A DNA stretch of 64,000 nt, taken from sequence record NC_052653.1. The stretch is one strand, 5' to 3'. Source of the stretch: Escherichia phage vB_vPM_PD06. Positions 1,530 through 63,435 of this stretch are shown here, one piece after another; the stretch's first letter is position 1, and every line of letters begins with the position of its first letter. Both the position numbers and the translations under genes were made by a program. The notes under the pieces are model-generated. The model was not told the DNA's origin and searched no databases. It saw only the letters and a program-made list of their open reading frames with translations.

Positions 1530-2379
1530 TCAAATTCAACATTTTGCTAATACTTTTACTAACCTGAAGGAAGCAAAATTTAACATTGCAGATTATTCCA
1601 AACTAAAGTTTGGTAGTAACCAGGCAGCAAAAAGAATGGGACGCATTCTGGCTGAAAGTTTCTTTTCTAAATATGAAGAACGACTAGTAAATGAAAGTTT
1701 TGTTGTTATTCCATCTCCATACAACTATGTGAAAAATGCAGCTACAGTGTTATCTGAACATTTTGTAGATCACCTCAACTACCTAATCTCTATCAAAGGA
1801 GGTAAAGCAGTAGAGTGGGATATCGTTCATCGTAAAGTGAGTTATATCAATGATTATGGATTTCTTAGCAAAGAAGATCGTAAGGCTTTGATCGATGGTG
1901 ACACTTTCTCTATCAATCGTGATTTCTGGGGTAATAAAACTCTGATTTTCATTGATGATGTTAATATTACAGGAACACACGAAGAAAAACTTATTGAAAT
2001 TTTAGACAAAGAAGGTGTTGAAAACGATACGTTTTTCCTGTACTTTGCAAAGTATGAAGGTACAGAAGCCAACACCGAAGCTGCGCTTAACTTCAACTAT
2101 ATCAATAACTTGGCAGCTTTTATTAAAATGATTAAGCAAGAAACTGATGCTAAATGTTTGGTTCGTCCTATTAAGTATCTAATGAGTCAAAGCGAAGTTG
2201 ATTTTAAAATTGCACTTTCACAACTTCCTTTGTATTATGTAGAACAACTGTTCTTTGGTTGCCTTGCAGAAGGTTACAATAATATTGAAAAATACAAAGA
2301 GAACTTTGATTTCCTGCGTCAATTTTTTGAAAGCAACATTATCAACAAATCTAATGTTAAAGGGGATTATTATGTCTAA
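1522..2379 (+). CDS. type I phosphoribosyltransferase (Ter-associated PRTase-like)
   Basis: PRPP-binding loop LIFIDDVNITGTHEEK. The start overlaps the HAD stop and the stop overlaps the next start. Confidence 0.8.
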   Translation: MRNQIQHFANTFTNLKEAKFNIADYSKLKFGSNQAAKRMGRILAESFFSKYEERLVNESFVVIPSPYNYVKNAATVLSEHFVDHLNYLISIKGGKAVEWDIVHRKVSYINDYGFLSKEDRKALIDGDTFSINRDFWGNKTLIFIDDVNITGTHEEKLIEILDKEGVENDTFFLYFAKYEGTEANTEAALNFNYINNLAAFIKMIKQETDAKCLVRPIKYLMSQSEVDFKIALSQLPLYYVEQLFFGCLAEGYNNIEKYKENFDFLRQFFESNIINKSNVKGDYYV

Positions 2380-3088
2380 TAAAGTGACGACTTTCGGAGA
2401 TCCTATCACCAATATTACAGAAAAAGATTTTGGGCGTGTAGCAACAGATAAAGATGGTGTCTTAAGAATTCGTGTACAAGGCATTACAGCACAGGATGAA
2501 TATGCTGTGTATGTTTCAGGTCTTAATTATATTGATGATCGCATTACACAAAACTTTGCACTGATCGGTGGTGTAGAGAAAATGTACTGGGAAGATGAAA
2601 TTGTAACAAGTTATCCAGCAGGTATCATTGAGGTACACGGTGATCTTTTAGCAGCAGCCGAGAGAGGCGATATAGACGCTATAGCACACTGCTGTAACTG
2701 TTTTTGCACTATGGGTAGTGGTATTGCACCAAAAATTAAAAGCAAGTGGCCTGGTGCGTTTAAAGCAGATTGTGCCACTAAGCGTGGTGATTATAAAAAA
2801 TTAGGTACGTTTACTAAGTATACAGAAAACAATTTGACAATTTATAATTTATATGGACAATATGGTTATAGTCGTCGTGAGGAAGGTAAGCGTGACCTGA
2901 ATTATGAAGCTATCTACAATGCGTTAGATAGTATGGGAGACGATGTTGTATCTTCAGGCGGTAAAATTGTAGGTTTACCAATGCTTGGTTGTGGTTTGGC
3001 TGGAGGTTCTTGGAATATTGTAAAACTTATGATCGAAGAAACTCTAGTGAACAAAGGTTTAAATGTAATTGTTTACAAACTGAAATAA
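2372..3088 (+). CDS. macrodomain protein (ADP-ribose binding/hydrolase family) with ~85 aa N-terminal extension
   Basis: Macro motifs AHCCNCFCTMGSGIAPKIKSKWP and GLPMLGCGLAGGSW. The ATG at 2372 overlaps the PRTase stop (ATGTCTAA). The track start at 2255 lies inside the PRTase gene. Confidence 0.8.
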   Translation: MSNKVTTFGDPITNITEKDFGRVATDKDGVLRIRVQGITAQDEYAVYVSGLNYIDDRITQNFALIGGVEKMYWEDEIVTSYPAGIIEVHGDLLAAAERGDIDAIAHCCNCFCTMGSGIAPKIKSKWPGAFKADCATKRGDYKKLGTFTKYTENNLTIYNLYGQYGYSRREEGKRDLNYEAIYNALDSMGDDVVSSGGKIVGLPMLGCGLAGGSWNIVKLMIEETLVNKGLNVIVYKLK

Positions 3089-3644: not shown

Positions 3645-4622
3645 ATGCAACTGGGTTTCCCAATTATTGATGTGGTTGTTTTAGTGGGTATTTTAGTCTT
3701 GTCGATTTGTATTGATTTCTTCGGACACAGAGAAAACAAAGAAATCTCATTTAAATCTGCAATTGGCTGGTCAATTTTCTGGATTGGGGTATCATTAGCC
3801 TACTATGGTTTTGTATACTTCCAACACGGTGCTGATTTCGCGAGCTTGTTCTTGAGTGGGTATGTGTTGGAGAAATCTCTTTCTGTAGATAACTTAGTAG
3901 TATTTGTGGCAGTATTCGCAAGTTTTGGTATTAAAAGCACACACTTGCAACACAAGATTCTACTTTGGGGTATTGCAGGTGCGATTGTCTTCCGAGGTGT
4001 GTTTGTAGCAGTAGGCACTTACTTGTTGAGTTTGGGCTGGTATGTTAATATCTTCTTCGGTGCTGTCATCCTTTTCTGTGCAGCTAAAATGGTATTCGCT
4101 GGAGATAATGACGCAGAAGTTGATTACTCTAAACACTGGGCTACTCGCATTGTTCGTAAGCTGTTCCCTGTATCTGATCAGATGGATGGTGAGAAGTTCT
4201 TCACAATCAAAAATGGTGTTCGTGTAGCAACTCCTGCATTGGTTTGTGTGTTTGTAATGGAAATGGTTGACGTAATCTTTGCAGTAGACTCTGTTCCAGC
4301 AGTAATTGCAGTGACACAAGAACCTCTGCTTGTATTTTCTTCAATGCTGTGTGCAATTTTAGGTCTACGTGCTCTGTTCTTTGTCCTTAGTGTTGCACTG
4401 AAATATTTGGTTCATCTGGAGAAAGCAGTTATCGTAGTCCTGGTATTTGTGGGTGTAAAACTGATGTATCACCCGTTTGCAGAAACTCTGCACGCAAAAG
4501 TGAGTTTCCTGCCAGCACACATTGATCCGACGATCAGTATGTATATTGTGTTAGGTACTCTGGGGCTGGGTGTTATTGCAAGTTTAATCTTCCCTGAAAA
4601 AGAAGACCAGGCTGTTGCTTAA
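3645..4622 (+). CDS. terC: TerC-family integral membrane protein
   Basis: A 325 aa polytopic membrane protein with TerC/Alx-like blocks (EKSLSVDNLVVF, MEMVDVIFAVDSVPAV). Confidence 0.8.
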   Translation: MQLGFPIIDVVVLVGILVLSICIDFFGHRENKEISFKSAIGWSIFWIGVSLAYYGFVYFQHGADFASLFLSGYVLEKSLSVDNLVVFVAVFASFGIKSTHLQHKILLWGIAGAIVFRGVFVAVGTYLLSLGWYVNIFFGAVILFCAAKMVFAGDNDAEVDYSKHWATRIVRKLFPVSDQMDGEKFFTIKNGVRVATPALVCVFVMEMVDVIFAVDSVPAVIAVTQEPLLVFSSMLCAILGLRALFFVLSVALKYLVHLEKAVIVVLVFVGVKLMYHPFAETLHAKVSFLPAHIDPTISMYIVLGTLGLGVIASLIFPEKEDQAVA

Positions 4623-17490: not shown

Positions 17491-20400
17491 ATGGGAGCTT
17501 TTACTTTCGACATTGAAAGTAACAACTTGCTTAATGACGAAAGTGTAGATTACTTGGCAAGTCCATATCGTTTAAAAGATAGTTTTGCAATGCACTGTAT
17601 TGTGTGCGAAAGTCATGATACTGGAGAGATTATTGCTTTCCATGATGGTGATAAATATCTTTTCGATGGTCGTCCGTATATTGAGACTGACGGAAAGTAT
17701 GAATACCGACTGGAGGAATATGAGCATTTAGAATATACCCATTTCCCTCTTAAAGATTTTCCTGATTTTGTAAATGGAACAGGTAAATTTAAAGGTAATT
17801 CAAACTATAAAATTACCAAAGTAGTTGGACACAACATCATTAACTTCGACTTACTGGCAATTAAATTATTTTTTAAACTCAACTACAGTATTAAGTACAA
17901 TACTTGGGGTAATAGTAACATTGAAATTTGTGATACTATGATCTTAAGTAAGACACTAAACCCTGATCGCTTCGGTGGTCATAGTCTGGCAGAGTTATCT
18001 AAGAAAGCTGGAGGGGATGTTAAAATTGATTTTAGAAAAAACATTCCTGAAACTGAAAGATTTAGAACATTTGCAGCAGATATGCTGTATTACTGTATTT
18101 ACGATAACAAAGCTAACACCGCAGTGTTCCGTTATTTGATGGAAGAGTGGGGTGATTATAACAAGTGGTCTGAACCATTTAACTTAGAACAACGTGTAGC
18201 TGATATTATTACACGTCAAGAGCACCGTGGCTTTGCTTTCAATATGAAACAAGCAGAAGATAATATTCGTGATCTGGATGCTCGAATGGAAGCATGTCGT
18301 TTAGAGGCAGAACCTGTGCTACCTCCTAAACCTGCTACTAAAGGTTATTTGAAATCATTCATTCCACCTAAACTACAGTTTAAAAAGAATGGTGAGCCTT
18401 CAAGTAACATGATAAAGTTTGCAGAGAAACATTCTGGTGAACTTGTACAAAAAGAAGATGGTTGGTGGTTATTTGCATTAGGTAAAGAGTTTAAACTACC
18501 TATTCCAGCAGAAGAACCTATTTGTGATCCTACAGTACCTGCTACTTTAGACGACACTACACATATTAAAAATTGGTTAGTTGGTTTAGGTTGGAGTCCA
18601 TCTGAATATAAAGATAAAGATATCACTCTTAAATCTGGCACTAAGATTAAGAAAGATGAAGCACAAATGGAGAAAGCTATTCGTGACTATGTTGATCAAA
18701 CATTAGCATCTAACTTCTGCCAGGATAGATGTGATCATCTGGAGTGCACACCAGAAACTTTGGAATGGAAACTAAGAGATCGTATTGCTAAAGCTAAAGG
18801 TCGTGGTGTTAAAGTGCTTACTAACCCTTCCTTTACAAAAGGGCAAGAGAAGGATATTTGTCCTAACTTGGAAGCACTGGGTGAAAAGTTCCCTTATGCT
18901 ACGCAGATTGTGCAGTATCTTACGTATAAACATCGTAGAAACTCTATTCTAGGTGGTGGTGCTGATTGGGAAGAGGATGAAGAGGATTACGATAAAGGTT
19001 ATCTGGCGGCAGTAAGAGCTGATGGTCGTATACCAACTCCTGCTGCAACGTGTGATGCAGCTACGTCTCGTATGAAACATAGGTTAGTAGCAAATATCCC
19101 ACGTGTAACATCTCTGTACGGATATGAAATGCGTAACTTATTTGGTGTAGAAGTTCCAAAATACTTCCAAATTGGTTATGACTTTGATTCTCTTGAGGCA
19201 AAAATAGAATCACACTACTGTGTACCTATGGATGCACAAGCACTAACCCGTAAAGGTTGGGTTGGTTATCACGATCTACAAGAAGGGGATGAAATCTTAG
19301 GATATAACCCAGAAACAGGACTTAAAGAATGGACTAAAGTAAAAGGTAAGGTCTTCTATAAAAATAGTAAGACGTTTGAGATTAAAGGAAAATCCCATAC
19401 TTATCGTGCAACAGCAGATCACCGTTGGTATGTTAATACTCGTAGTACAGGGAATACTTATGTGCCTAAAGTCAGAACAACTGCCGAGCTTTGCACAGGA
19501 GATAACATTATTTGTAATGCTCCATTTAACATGGAACAAGATCAAGTAAATAGTTTAACTTCTGTTCAACAAGGTAAATGGGATGTTCCGTGGGTAGAAC
19601 GTGTAGTTAATATGTCTCATGCCGAGCGTGTGGCTTTCTTGGAAGGTTTTTTGATTGCGGATGGTTACTGGCACAAACATAAACAAAAACCTGTTTGGCG
19701 CTGGGCGCAGAACCCAGGAGAACTTTTTGAAGCAGCCTTAACTGCCTCATACCTGGTTCATGGGGGTAATATTTCTGTAGCCTTCAATACGAAAGACCAG
19801 AAAGTAAAAGTGGCAACGTTGGCTAACCGCTCTCACATCCCTGTTCAAAGTCTGACTATTGAAGAATGGGGTGTAGAAGATGTTTGGTGTCCACAAACAG
19901 AACTCGGTACATGGGTTATGCGTCAGAAAGACTGCATCACGATTACAGGGAATTGTTGGCGGTACGAGCAGGAACCACACGAATATTGTAATGCTCTATT
20001 GTTGGAAAAACCTAATGATGTTCATACAATGATGGCTCGACGTATTTCTGACACTATTGGTCGTAAGTTTGAACGAAGCCCTGCTAAATCTGTTAAGTAT
20101 GGTATTACTTATGGTGCTCAAGCTGCAAAAGTAGCAAAAACTATAGGTAGTGATATGTATACAGGACAGCTTGTATACGATGCTTTCTGGGAAGCTGCAA
20201 AACCTCTTGCGCTTCTTAAAGAACGTCTGCATGACTTTTGGGTTAAAACAGGTAAGAAATACATTCTTGGTATTGATGGTAGGAAAGTACCTACACGATC
20301 TGCACACGCAATACTTAACTCTCTGTTCCAGAGTGGTGGTGTTATTTGTGCAAAAAGAGCAATGGTTATCTACGATGATCTTATCGAAGAAGAAGGATTA

Positions 20401-20805
20401 GCTGTTGACTTTTTTGTTGATGACTGGAAAAATAAGTCATTCGTTCAACAAATGATTGCATATCACGATGAAGCACAGCTTGAAGTAACTCGTGATCTGG
20501 TGCATTTTAAATGGTTCTCTAAAGAATCTTTAGGTTGGACTCAAGTTGATGATCCAGAAGAACAAAAGAAAATTGATAAAGAATGTTTGGATAAAGTTAA
20601 TGCCTGGAAAGAAGAGGAAGAGAAACGTACTGGCAAGATTTGGGCTAACGTACATGAATCTCCGAAAGGTGGTTGGTTTACAGCCTACAGTCGTGCTGGA
20701 GAATTAGCATCTATCGCTGTTAATAAAGCTGGTGAGTATTACAATCTTAATGTACCTCTAACTGCTGGTTACGATGTTGGTAGTTCATGGTCAACTTGTC
20801 ACTGA
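17491..20805 (+). CDS. family A DNA polymerase with 3'-5' exonuclease domain, interrupted by an intein
   Basis: Exo motifs FDIESNN, HNIINFD and YCIYD. Pol motif A GYDFDSLEAKI, motif B RSPAKSVKYGITYG and motif C AYHDEAQ. A 245 aa insertion follows motif A. Confidence 0.9.
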   Translation: MGAFTFDIESNNLLNDESVDYLASPYRLKDSFAMHCIVCESHDTGEIIAFHDGDKYLFDGRPYIETDGKYEYRLEEYEHLEYTHFPLKDFPDFVNGTGKFKGNSNYKITKVVGHNIINFDLLAIKLFFKLNYSIKYNTWGNSNIEICDTMILSKTLNPDRFGGHSLAELSKKAGGDVKIDFRKNIPETERFRTFAADMLYYCIYDNKANTAVFRYLMEEWGDYNKWSEPFNLEQRVADIITRQEHRGFAFNMKQAEDNIRDLDARMEACRLEAEPVLPPKPATKGYLKSFIPPKLQFKKNGEPSSNMIKFAEKHSGELVQKEDGWWLFALGKEFKLPIPAEEPICDPTVPATLDDTTHIKNWLVGLGWSPSEYKDKDITLKSGTKIKKDEAQMEKAIRDYVDQTLASNFCQDRCDHLECTPETLEWKLRDRIAKAKGRGVKVLTNPSFTKGQEKDICPNLEALGEKFPYATQIVQYLTYKHRRNSILGGGADWEEDEEDYDKGYLAAVRADGRIPTPAATCDAATSRMKHRLVANIPRVTSLYGYEMRNLFGVEVPKYFQIGYDFDSLEAKIESHYCVPMDAQALTRKGWVGYHDLQEGDEILGYNPETGLKEWTKVKGKVFYKNSKTFEIKGKSHTYRATADHRWYVNTRSTGNTYVPKVRTTAELCTGDNIICNAPFNMEQDQVNSLTSVQQGKWDVPWVERVVNMSHAERVAFLEGFLIADGYWHKHKQKPVWRWAQNPGELFEAALTASYLVHGGNISVAFNTKDQKVKVATLANRSHIPVQSLTIEEWGVEDVWCPQTELGTWVMRQKDCITITGNCWRYEQEPHEYCNALLLEKPNDVHTMMARRISDTIGRKFERSPAKSVKYGITYGAQAAKVAKTIGSDMYTGQLVYDAFWEAAKPLALLKERLHDFWVKTGKKYILGIDGRKVPTRSAHAILNSLFQSGGVICAKRAMVIYDDLIEEEGLAVDFFVDDWKNKSFVQQMIAYHDEAQLEVTRDLVHFKWFSKESLGWTQVDDPEEQKKIDKECLDKVNAWKEEEEKRTGKIWANVHESPKGGWFTAYSRAGELASIAVNKAGEYYNLNVPLTAGYDVGSSWSTCH
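19219..19953 (+). mobile_element. intein (245 aa) with a LAGLIDADG-like segment, inserted just downstream of polymerase motif A
   Basis: Begins CVPMDAQALTRKGW. Block B-like RATADHRW. Contains VAFLEGFLIADGYW. Ends CITITGN followed by +1 Cys (CWRYEQ). The flanking ESHY/CWRY aligns with the continuous T7-type pol sequence after motif A. Confidence 0.8.
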
Positions 20806-20832: not shown

Positions 20833-21429
20833 ATGCTTACCGTGTATGGTGAAGGTATTAATGATTTGGAAGGCGAGAGTACACTACCTGGTAGTAAGAA
20901 ACTAACGCCGCATTATATGAAATGGATGGCTATGTTGGGGAGGTGTTACTCCCCTTGTCAACAAGAACGTGATCCTTGTTATAAGGGGGTGACGGTTTGT
21001 GAAGAATGGAAGTTGTTCTCCAATTTCTATTCCTGGTTGCAAACTTGGGATAACTGGGAAAACTTAGAACTTGATAAAGATATTATAGGAGGGAGAGTTT
21101 ACTCTCCCGATACCTGTCTTTTAGTAACAGGAGATCTTAATAAGTTCTTAGCTTATAGAGTAAGTAAAAGATCTCATGGGACTATGGTAGGCTGTAGTTA
21201 CGAGAAAGATCGTAAAAAGTATAAAGCCAACATAAAAGTAGGCAGTCGCATGAAAACGCTGGGACGTTTTAATACTGAAATTGAAGCGCATCTTTGCTGG
21301 TTGAAAGCTAAGGCAGAGCAGCTTACAAAATTCTTTGAAACTGAAGATGAAAGAGTTGTTCCACATCTTAAAGCACTATGTAATGAAATGCTTGAGCATG
21401 TAGAACAACATAAAGAGTGGACACGATAG
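20833..21429 (+). CDS. AP2-domain DNA-binding protein, free-standing homing-endonuclease-like
   Basis: N-terminal W..M..RC......YKGVTVCEEW..F..F motif and C-terminal AP2-like GCSYEKDRKKYKANIKVGSRMKTLGRFNTEIEA. Sits directly after the polymerase gene. Confidence 0.55.
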   Translation: MLTVYGEGINDLEGESTLPGSKKLTPHYMKWMAMLGRCYSPCQQERDPCYKGVTVCEEWKLFSNFYSWLQTWDNWENLELDKDIIGGRVYSPDTCLLVTGDLNKFLAYRVSKRSHGTMVGCSYEKDRKKYKANIKVGSRMKTLGRFNTEIEAHLCWLKAKAEQLTKFFETEDERVVPHLKALCNEMLEHVEQHKEWTR

Positions 21430-62963: not shown

Positions 62964-63060
62964 TGGCAGCAAGGTGAGGAATCGAACCCCTTGATCTATG
63001 GTTTGGAGCCATATTGAGTACCATACTCTTTTAAATCTACCCAGCTATGAGTTCCTTGAG
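62964..63060 (-). pseudogene. tRNA-Trp(CCA)-like gene with a disrupted 5' acceptor/D region
   Basis: Anticodon arm TATGG-CTCCAAA-CCATA, T arm AGGGG-TTCGATT-CCTCA and a 3' end CCTTGCT-G-CCA are canonical. The expected 5' acceptor strand is absent in register; CAAGG lies 21 nt further upstream. Confidence 0.4.
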
Positions 63061-63104: not shown

Positions 63105-63183
63105 TGGAGGCGGGAATCGGATTTGAACCGATGATCTCCAGCATATGAAACTGGCGAGGACGACCAGACTCCTCTATCCCGCG
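63105..63183 (-). tRNA. tRNA-Met (anticodon CAT), initiator-like features, CCA encoded
   Basis: Hand fold CGCGGGA-TA-GAGG...CCTC-G-CCAGT-TTCATAT-GCTGG-AGATC-ATCGG-TTCAAAT-CCGAT-TCCCGCC-T-CCA. C1 and C72 are unpaired. A11:T24 is present. Confidence 0.75.
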
Positions 63184-63360: not shown

Positions 63361-63435
63361 TGGTGCAGAGAGATGGTAACGATCCATCCTTTCTACCTTT
63401 TCAGGGTAGCACTAATCCGTCTCAGCTATCTCTGC
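63361..63435 (-). tRNA. tRNA-Phe (anticodon GAA), CCA encoded
   Basis: Acceptor GCAGAGA/TCTCTGC, anticodon arm CTACC-CTGAAAA-GGTAG, T arm GATGG-ATCGTTA-CCATC (atypical T loop). Confidence 0.75.

Follow-up and report, generated by a model that had tools for sequence, protein, structure and literature searches.

A non-canonically folded, probably functional tRNA-Trp(CCA) gene in the tRNA operon of Escherichia phage vB_vPM_PD06

What kind of gene, if any, lies between tRNA-Met and tRNA-Ile in the minus-strand tRNA operon of Escherichia phage vB_vPM_PD06? The DNA analyzed here (64,000 nucleotides (nt) of record NC_052653.1, referred to as the window) belongs to a phi92-like coliphage: the stretch tested is 100% identical to Escherichia phage vB_vPM_PD114 and shares approximately 96–99% identity with phi92 and other Justusliebigvirus phages. 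Six tRNAs of the window (Gln, Pro, Phe, Leu, Met and Ile) are detected by ARAGORN, which makes no call in the 146-nt gap separating tRNA-Met from tRNA-Ile. An earlier note on this DNA had described in the gap a tRNA-Trp-like gene with its 5′ acceptor strand out of register. The sequence facts listed in it are all correct and lie on the minus strand, i.e. (i) the anticodon arm TATGG-CTCCAAA-CCATA (63013–62997), followed by the 5-nt GATCA and a T arm containing TTCGATT, (ii) the 3′ end composed of CCTTGCT (62974–62968), G (62967) and CCA (62966–62964), (iii) the heptamer AGATTTA (63038–63032), which pairs with the 3′ acceptor strand at two of seven positions, (iv) the hairpin GAG-TATGGTA-CTC, and (v) the motif CAAGG (63054–63058), regarded there as a possible displaced partner of the acceptor strand. 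A decaying pseudogene, a recombination scar and a tRNA with an insertion that is processed out had been put forward as explanations.

The comparative analysis points to a different answer, to which we assign a probability of about three in four: the element appears to be a working tRNA-Trp(CCA) gene of the phage, the core of which departs from the canonical one. It spans 83 nt and encodes its CCA (62964–63046, minus strand; boundaries from the family covariance model R1, identical in the homologues, which are 82–84 nt long), and the window copy scores 100.3 bits (E 4e-27) with this model. The description as a tRNA-Trp-like gene was therefore borne out, and so was the displacement of the 5′ acceptor strand, as 8 extra nt are found between the acceptor stem and the D-like hairpin. 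The true strand, AGCTGGGT (63046–63039), had been missed; it lies 8 nt further upstream than expected and pairs with ACCTTGCT (62975–62968) at seven of eight positions, with one U·U and one G·U.

Read in the 5′ to 3′ direction (minus strand throughout), the element consists of AGCUGGGU, A9, GAU, UUAAAA, GAGUA-UGG-UACUC, AA, UAUGG-CUCCAAA-CCAUA, G, AUC, AA, GGGG-UUCGAUU-CCUC, ACCUUGCU, G and CCA. The 5′ acceptor strand (nt 1–8; 63039–63046) pairs with the 3′ acceptor strand (62968–62975); in the window copy this stem carries a U4·U69 mismatch and a G5·U68 wobble, and across the family pairs 1–3 and 5–8 are maintained with compensatory changes. The single nucleotide A9 (63038), an invariant column in the 83-nt subfamily (alignment A1, see below), links the stem to GAU (nt 10–12; 63035–63037), which forms with AUC (62993–62995) a helix of three base pairs (bp), termed here helix X, as indicated by register-specific covariation. 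It is followed by a single-stranded linker, UUAAAA (63029–63034; family consensus UUWAAN, with T13, T14, A16 and A17 invariant), and by a D-loop-like hairpin, GAGUA-UGG-UACUC (63016–63028), in which all five stem pairs covary and the invariant GG of the loop probably plays the role of G18 G19. An AA linker (63014–63015) leads to the anticodon arm (62997–63013; anticodon CCA at 63006–63004), whose stem is 100% paired and covarying in A1. Downstream of the arm lie a 44-like G (62996) and the 3′ strand of helix X (together 62993–62996), supported by covariation, and a second AA linker (62991–62992), the second nucleotide of which would correspond to position 49 of a tRNA with a 7-bp acceptor and a 5-bp T stem (7/5). 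The T arm (62976–62990) has a 4-bp stem with 100% of cells paired and a conserved UUCGA, and the gene ends with the discriminator G73 and CCA (62964–62967; CCA is encoded in 20 of 27 distinct sequences). The second A of the first AA linker stands opposite G 62996, probably as a 26:44-like pair; the facing positions are A/G, A/A, A/C, A/U or G/U across the family. The RNA possesses a closing acceptor stem with unpaired discriminator and CCA, a 7-nt anticodon loop with U33 and a purine at position 37, and a UUCRA T loop, each of these features either covarying or invariant in the family. A canonical D arm, with a 10–13:22–25 stem directly 5′ of the anticodon arm, is lacking: nt 10–12 pair with nt 52–54, and the GG loop sits on a hairpin of its own.

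Two sets of homologues were used to evaluate this structure: a gapless MAFFT alignment of 16 distinct sequences (A1) and a set of 27 distinct sequences aligned to the family model. In A1, 94.8% of pair cells hold standard pairs, compared to 42–47% when the partners are slid by 1–3 columns, and double changes occur in 20 of 25 pairs. The corresponding values for the larger set are 93.5% of pair cells, 42–50% in the shifted controls, and double changes in 22 of 25 pairs. The sequences share ancestry and shuffle statistics of this kind therefore overstate their independence; clean compensatory swaps between close sisters number at least two. The division of the acceptor/T branch was also resolved by pair counts. 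Pair 8:65 is present in 16/16 sequences and in four pair types (U-A, U·G, A-U and C-G). Just two of the 16 sequences have position 49 paired with 65; the T stem therefore comprises 4 bp and the branch is of the 8/4 type; the 7/5 reading is ruled out by the same counts.

Helix X was analyzed in the 27 sequences, where 97.5% of its cells are paired, all three pairs covary, and 17 different strand combinations occur, 13 of them fully complementary. In a register scan, all three pairs were present in 23 of the 27 sequences at the proposed register and in at most five at nearly all others; the remaining high-scoring registers (18–22 of 27) oppose the invariant U-rich linker to purine-rich T-stem columns and display no covariation. 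The variants include AGU/ACU (Klebsiella phage KP13-26), GUU/AAC (Hafnia phage), GCU/AGC (L129), GGU/ACC (Citrobacter phage Tr1), GCC/GGC (L133), GAC/GUC (L139), GUC/GAC (L141), and AGC/GCU and AAC/GUU (Bacillus phages). The swaps between close sisters in this helix are GUU/AAC versus GCU/AGC among Hafnia-type phages and AGC/GCU versus AAC/GUU among Bacillus phages. RNAalifold, applied to the same alignment, independently recovered the other helices: the acceptor stem with its 8 bp, the hairpin, the anticodon arm and the T stem with its 4 bp. Minimum free energy folds of five divergent homologues, each exactly 83 nt long, likewise contain the arms of the window copy (8-bp closing stem, small hairpin, anticodon arm and 4-bp T stem).

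The elbow contact of canonical tRNAs (G18 G19 with pseudouridine 55 and C56) may have its counterparts in the GG of the hairpin loop and in UUCGA, both of which are conserved. The hairpin loop reads NGG in 26 of 27 sequences. The exception, Salmonella phage SSBI34, has UGU together with the T loop UUAGAUU in place of the UUCGA found elsewhere; this double change, the only covariation event at the elbow, is consistent with compensation of the 19:56 type and with a normal elbow.

Several observations weigh against interpretation of the element as a working tRNA with this fold. RNAalifold does not predict helix X on the alignment mentioned above, and consequently only the covariation counts argue for this helix, which, at 3 bp, is short; L142 and L144 contain two of its three pairs. 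Position 4:69 carries a mismatch of U with a pyrimidine in 11 of 27 sequences, the window copy among them, which could weaken recognition of the RNA. The predicted fold of the window copy is no more stable than those of shuffled sequences (z = +0.35). The Rfam tRNA model (RF00005) assigns the element 22.9 bits, below the gathering score of 29, and deletes the D arm in the alignment, so that, with ARAGORN silent as well, it falls outside what standard gene finders accept as a tRNA. In addition, the argument from tRNA complements presented below relies in part on L128-type contigs, of which about 10 kb of about 149 kb was examined, and a canonical tRNA-Trp may be encoded elsewhere in them.

The boundaries of the gene are also indicated by its surroundings. 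In the window, its upstream neighbor, in the same operon, is tRNA-Met(CAT) (63105–63183, minus strand; ARAGORN; 49 bits with the Rfam model) and its downstream neighbor is tRNA-Ile(GAT) (62883–62958, minus strand; ARAGORN; 57.3 bits), which starts 5 nt past the CCA of the Trp gene. The motif CAAGG (63054–63058, minus strand) is placed outside the gene, within a spacer of 58 nt that only the phi92 genus possesses, and is absent from Salmonella phage UAB_1, KP13-26, the Hafnia phage, Tr1 and the IMG/VR contig L128, which disqualifies it as the acceptor partner. In UAB_1 an HNH endonuclease gene replaces tRNA-Met and the spacer, and homology resumes approximately 3 nt before AGCCGGGT (AGCC/TGGG), after the inserted gene; a BLAST match to phage SD2 starts at the same query position. 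This HNH homing endonuclease gene (UAB_1 L007, 784–1197; also present in SD2) ends a few nt before the Trp gene and thus marks its 5′ boundary. In KP13-26, Hafnia phage SarahDanielle (Ounavirinae), Tr1 and L128, the unit begins 1–6 nt past the CCA of the preceding tRNA. The gene is always located within tRNA clusters. It is annotated in none of approximately 60 related GenBank records (phi92-like, Klebsiella, Hafnia and Citrobacter phages). In the SarahDanielle record (L004), the locus tag _94 is skipped between _93 and _95, exactly at the non-canonical Trp gene, which suggests that the annotators had a call there and then removed it.

The amino acid specificity of the putative tRNA can be predicted from conserved positions. 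Neither the anticodon loop CUCCAAA nor G73 varies in any of the 27 distinct sequences, and pair 1:72 is A-U in 19, G·U in seven and G-C in one. In both E. coli and B. subtilis, the determinants of Trp identity are G73 as discriminator, the anticodon and the first pair of the acceptor stem (PMC9976931), and the window copy contains the bacterial set (C34 C35 A36, G73 and A1-U72).

As regards function, the most telling evidence is the set of tRNAs found in phages that carry the element. The complete record of KP13-26 lists 267 coding sequences and 24 tRNAs in one cluster, covering 19 amino acids plus a CUA-anticodon tRNA. Trp is the sole amino acid without an annotated tRNA, and the Trp element lies within this cluster, between Met and Ile. 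Contig L128 has 23 ARAGORN tRNAs, with only Trp missing. No canonical tRNA-Trp was found at the loci carrying the 82–84-nt family (R1 score of at least 60 bits). Since the element fills the only empty slot in near-complete tRNA sets, it is best regarded as the tRNA-Trp of these phages, which, if it works, would carry a full set rather than lacking this one species. The CUA-anticodon tRNA, called tRNA-Pyl (L148 of KP13-26, 1757–1831; L128, 9301–9375), is a potential amber suppressor of Stephanstirmvirinae phages.

Homologs were sought in the IMG/VR database with the pattern TTWAA-N7-GG-N13-T-N16-RGGGTTCGAYTCCT, in which the anticodon was left free, and all the non-canonical matches had the loop CUCCAAA. 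With the R1 model, family members score 62–100 bits and canonical tRNAs, including canonical tRNA-Trp, at most 48 bits; the window element is far beyond chance. The members are distributed among (i) Stephanstirmvirinae (Justusliebigvirus, Klebsiella and Citrobacter phages), (ii) Ounavirinae, (iii) one Vequintavirinae phage, (iv) Bacillus phages of the Bastillevirinae (Bcp1, BCP78, BM15, TsarBomba, Bc431v3 and others) and (v) contigs of 150–240 kb assigned to jumbo phages. In a search of 185,579 representative genomes of bacteria and archaea, the pattern matched six contigs, four of which contain family members, all of these being metagenome-assembled genome (MAG) or draft contigs. The family is almost confined to phages. 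In the sister genus Phapecoctavirus, the Trp gene is absent from the locus. The earlier note had named two findings that would speak against its description, i.e. a standard cloverleaf detected by software and relatives with an intact gene that differs by point changes only. Neither was encountered: ARAGORN and the Rfam tRNA model found no such cloverleaf, and instead of a canonical gene the relatives have at this locus the same non-canonical gene or, in Phapecoctavirus, none.

In records of Bacillus phages the homolog is unannotated, labeled tRNA-Trp (TsarBomba, 84 nt) or, in Bc431v3, labeled tRNA-Trp and “possible pseudogene” (tRNAscan-SE 1.21 score 19.55); the Bc431v3 genome paper does not discuss it. 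Several candidates were rejected in the course of the search. An initial scan of the collection (TGG N9 TGGCTCCAAAC) was too loose, the majority of the 120 loci it returned being fortuitous or canonical matches, and these loci were used only as negative background for the covariance model. L095 (2766–2846) was first read as a member with a 9/3 branch and a 5-bp helix X. ARAGORN folds an ordinary 7/5 tRNA-Trp from position 2775 and the upstream bases are part of the preceding tRNA-Asp, so this locus is not a member. L136, L138 and L145 match the pattern, but appear by hand reading to be near-canonical 7/5 tRNA-Trp genes, with 30–32 bits on the family model.

A single RNA hints that this architecture may extend beyond Trp. 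Contig L111 (462 kb, IMG/VR) encodes at 2364–2445 (minus strand) an 82-nt RNA with the anticodon loop CUUUUAA (Lys UUU) and what appears to be the layout of the Trp family. Its acceptor has 8 bp and its T stem 4 bp, AACG pairs with CGUU across the anticodon arm, and the hairpin reads GUCGUC-UGG-GACGGC; the score with the Trp family model is 52.7 bits. The neighboring 83-nt tRNA-Tyr-like gene (2273–2355) looks 8/4 too.

How such an RNA might function can be outlined from its sequence. It would be produced as part of the polycistronic minus-strand tRNA transcript and released by RNase P and 3′ trimming, which should be possible because the acceptor/T branch still comprises 12 bp (8 + 4 rather than 7 + 5). 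Host tryptophanyl-tRNA synthetase (TrpRS) would be expected to charge it, since the bacterial Trp identity set is present, and the charged RNA would read UGG. In the core, the D stem would be replaced by helix X, formed by nt 10–12 and three variable-loop nt. This helix could stack on the anticodon stem like a D stem, with the strand connectivity swapped so that the opposite strand is continuous, because it continues from the 3′ strand of the stem via one G44-like nucleotide facing an A26-like one. The independent NGG-loop hairpin would take over the docking of G18 G19 on the T loop, with the conserved UUWAA linker as a tether allowing it to reach the T loop and build the elbow. An L-shape and use on the ribosome are predicted features of the RNA.

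If the RNA is charged and used, bacterial translation accommodates a tRNA in which other strands make up the D stem than in the textbook cloverleaf, which would widen the known span of working tRNA architectures and offer a natural scaffold for tRNA engineering. A systematic annotation gap would also be corrected, as gene finders either miss the gene or call it a pseudogene.

The explanations proposed in the earlier note, and two others, can be weighed against these data. Decay of a tRNA-Trp gene would account for the sub-threshold scores (22.9 bits with Rfam, no ARAGORN call, and the tRNAscan-SE verdict for Bc431v3) and for the U·U mismatch in the acceptor stem, but it should have left indels and broken pairs. 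Instead, 22 of 25 pairs are compensated, neither the anticodon loop nor G73 varies, a length of 82–84 nt is maintained in phages of unrelated hosts, and the 93.5% of paired cells reveals no loss of constraint; we consider a pseudogene very improbable. Even less probable is a recombination scar, i.e. the 5′ part of one tRNA gene fused to the 3′ two-thirds of a tRNA-Trp gene. The cluster is indeed active, as an HNH gene replaces tRNA-Met upstream in UAB_1 and SD2 and the presence of the Trp gene varies among genera. However, the 5′ strand covaries with its own 3′ strand and nt 10–12 covary with nt 52–54, and the same junction architecture is found, with every helix different in sequence, in phages of Gram-negative and Gram-positive hosts, unlike what a local scar would produce. 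An ancient rearrangement is a possible evolutionary origin of the family. Of the three ideas, an insertion that is processed out came nearest, in that extra nt do exist; these form the conserved helix X and the UUWAA linker, with no sign of removal. The alignment chosen by the Rfam tRNA model corresponds to a 64-nt D-armless tRNA, with the acceptor AGUAUGG (63027–63021)/CCUUGCU and the upstream 19 nt as a leader. Although six of seven pairs can form in the window phage, by hand counts this pairing fails in Tr1 (UCACUGG versus CUUUGCU) and L133 and reaches four of seven in the Hafnia phage; moreover, the AGUAUGG nt belong to the covarying hairpin, and the 19 nt of the supposed leader are conserved and covary with the 3′ end. 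The chance that this fold is the correct one is accordingly very small.

A more serious competitor, in our view still unlikely, is a tRNA-shaped RNA that acts elsewhere than in ordinary translation, whether as decoy or sponge for a host nuclease directed at tRNA-Trp or for another tRNA-targeting defense, as a TrpRS-binding regulator, or as a replacement tRNA rendered immune to such a defense by its altered core. Phage tRNAs are known to counter tRNA-cleaving defense systems (PMC11555353). The near confinement of the family to phages (four matches in the representative genomes, all in MAG or draft contigs) fits such a role, and the remodeled core and UUWAA linker could serve as a recognition or avoidance surface. 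Against a role outside translation, all the translation features are kept invariant (anticodon loop, G73, T loop, GG loop and 12-bp branch), the element supplies precisely the Trp species that is otherwise lacking from near-complete phage tRNA sets, and a nuclease specific for tRNA-Trp is not known to us from enterobacteria or Bacillus. A functional tRNA-Trp therefore remains the preferred interpretation.

Compared to a canonical tRNA-Trp(CCA), such as the product of E. coli trpT, the phage RNA has the same CUCCAAA loop, G73, A1-U72, UUCGA, 5-bp anticodon stem, encoded CCA and location in a tRNA operon. It differs in its 8-bp acceptor and 4-bp T stem (not 7/5), its length (83 instead of 76 nt), the 4:69 pyrimidine-U mismatch and the absence of the 10–13:22–25 D stem, as its nt 10–12 pair with the variable loop and the GG hairpin follows a 6-nt linker.

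An 8 + 4 branch is not new in itself: on the basis of sequences, Mukai et al. (2017; PMC5389517) proposed it for certain tRNA-Ser and tRNA-His genes of phages. The Trp element shares with the (8/4) tRNAs described there (allo-tRNAs and phage tRNA-Ser/tRNA-His) the division of a 12-bp branch into an 8-bp acceptor and a 4-bp T stem, as well as the location in phage tRNA clusters, and the Bacillus-phage copies even display the “8/4 with one bulged nucleotide” variant. The variable arms of those (8/4) tRNAs are described as long, as is their D stem, which is capped by a tetraloop, and their identity is Ser or His. The Trp element has a short variable region (6 nt between the anticodon and T stems, three of them in helix X), Trp identity, and helix X with a separate hairpin in place of the D stem; it therefore lacks the features by which allo-tRNAs are recognized (long variable arm, tRNA-Sec-like D stem-loop and Ser/Leu-type identity). 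A helix comparable to helix X is not mentioned in the passages of PMC5389517 consulted or in the Outlook of a 2020 review of non-canonical tRNAs (PMC7609411).

Two other groups of tRNAs deserve comparison. Bacterial tRNA-Sec (8/5) likewise has a lengthened acceptor and a D hairpin with a long stem and a very small loop, but its branch comprises 13 bp, its variable arm is long, its anticodon is UCA and its D arm is conventionally connected. Mitochondrial tRNAs lacking the D arm, e.g. mt-tRNA-Ser(AGY), share the absence of a canonical D stem, and unusual tRNAs of this kind still serve translation (PMC7609411, Outlook). They are shrunken and work with specialized mitochondrial machinery, whereas the Trp element is enlarged, retains the GG loop and the T loop, and must work with ordinary bacterial factors. 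No account of a D stem replaced by pairing between nt 10–12 and the variable loop turned up in the literature searched, though one may exist; the replacement would represent a new structural variant of tRNA, of which Bacillus copies already stand in GenBank as tRNA-Trp or pseudogene.

The rewired region coincides with a hinge of tRNA-Trp(CCA) that affects decoding. In this hinge (nt 9–12, 23–26 and 44–45), the mutations G24A (Hirsh) and A9C give UGA reading in E. coli (PMC13092985). These suppressors belong to the same tRNA species and affect the same hinge, but they are point mutants of a canonical cloverleaf, whereas the phage hinge is wholly rebuilt. It is conceivable, though in our view unlikely, that the rebuilding is adaptive and specific to tRNA-Trp, either enabling the CCA anticodon to read UGA besides UGG or hiding the tRNA from a host factor that senses the canonical core. 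Evasion of tRNA-directed host defense is known for phage tRNAs (PMC11555353). An adaptive hinge would explain the recovery of only CCA anticodons in the anticodon-free search, the near confinement to phages and the retention across Gram-negative and Gram-positive hosts. The UGA-reading version would amount to a naturally occurring analog of the Hirsh and A9C suppressors, but a far more radical one. Both versions are speculative. As the rewired region is the hinge controlling UGA misreading, the family lets the tuning of decoding by core structure be tested.

A scan of the window for in-frame pairs of open reading frames (ORFs) split by TGA revealed no candidate for UGA read-through. In the only long pair (17491–20805 followed by 20833–21429), the second ORF has its own ribosome-binding site and ATG, and the remaining pairs are antisense to real genes. 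The stops of long ORFs in the window (54 TAA, 6 TAG and 5 TGA) are uninformative in this respect.

Other unusual features were noted in the same tRNA clusters. In phi92 (NC_023693.1, L135; outside the window), an unannotated tRNA-Arg(UCU)-like gene, on which ARAGORN is silent, is located upstream in the same cluster at about 3873–3957. It has the acceptor CGGGGUG/CACCCCG, followed by G and CCA, and normal anticodon (CUUCUAA) and T arms, with 5 nt (UCUCA) at the place of the D arm and a 24-nt region with a small UUGG-containing hairpin after the anticodon arm. KP13-26 and L128 encode a canonical tRNA-Arg(UCU) instead, and the phi92 gene may represent a second kind of rewired tRNA.

The tRNA-Phe(GAA) of the window (63361–63435, minus strand; 49 bits with the Rfam tRNA model) has an atypical T loop, GGAUCGUUACC in place of GGUUCGAAUCC. 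The phi92 RefSeq record marks this tRNA as a pseudogene, and in UAB_1 it is listed as a pseudo tRNA-Glu. Between tRNA-Ile and a terminator (62751–62769) lies an unannotated transcribed spacer of approximately 110 nt (62770–62882, minus strand) with a T-arm-like hairpin (GGAGGGGUGCGACUCC); it is 90–93% conserved in Phapecoctavirus phages, unannotated there as well, and could be a small RNA or a tRNA remnant. A weak match to RyhB at this spacer reflected the terminator only. Finally, bacterial tRNA-Asn normally has a short variable loop, so the tRNA-Asn(GTT) found in phi92 (L135, 4684–4768), L128 (5628–5712) and KP13-26 is unusual, with a total of 85 nt and an extended variable arm (GAACGAAAGUUC).

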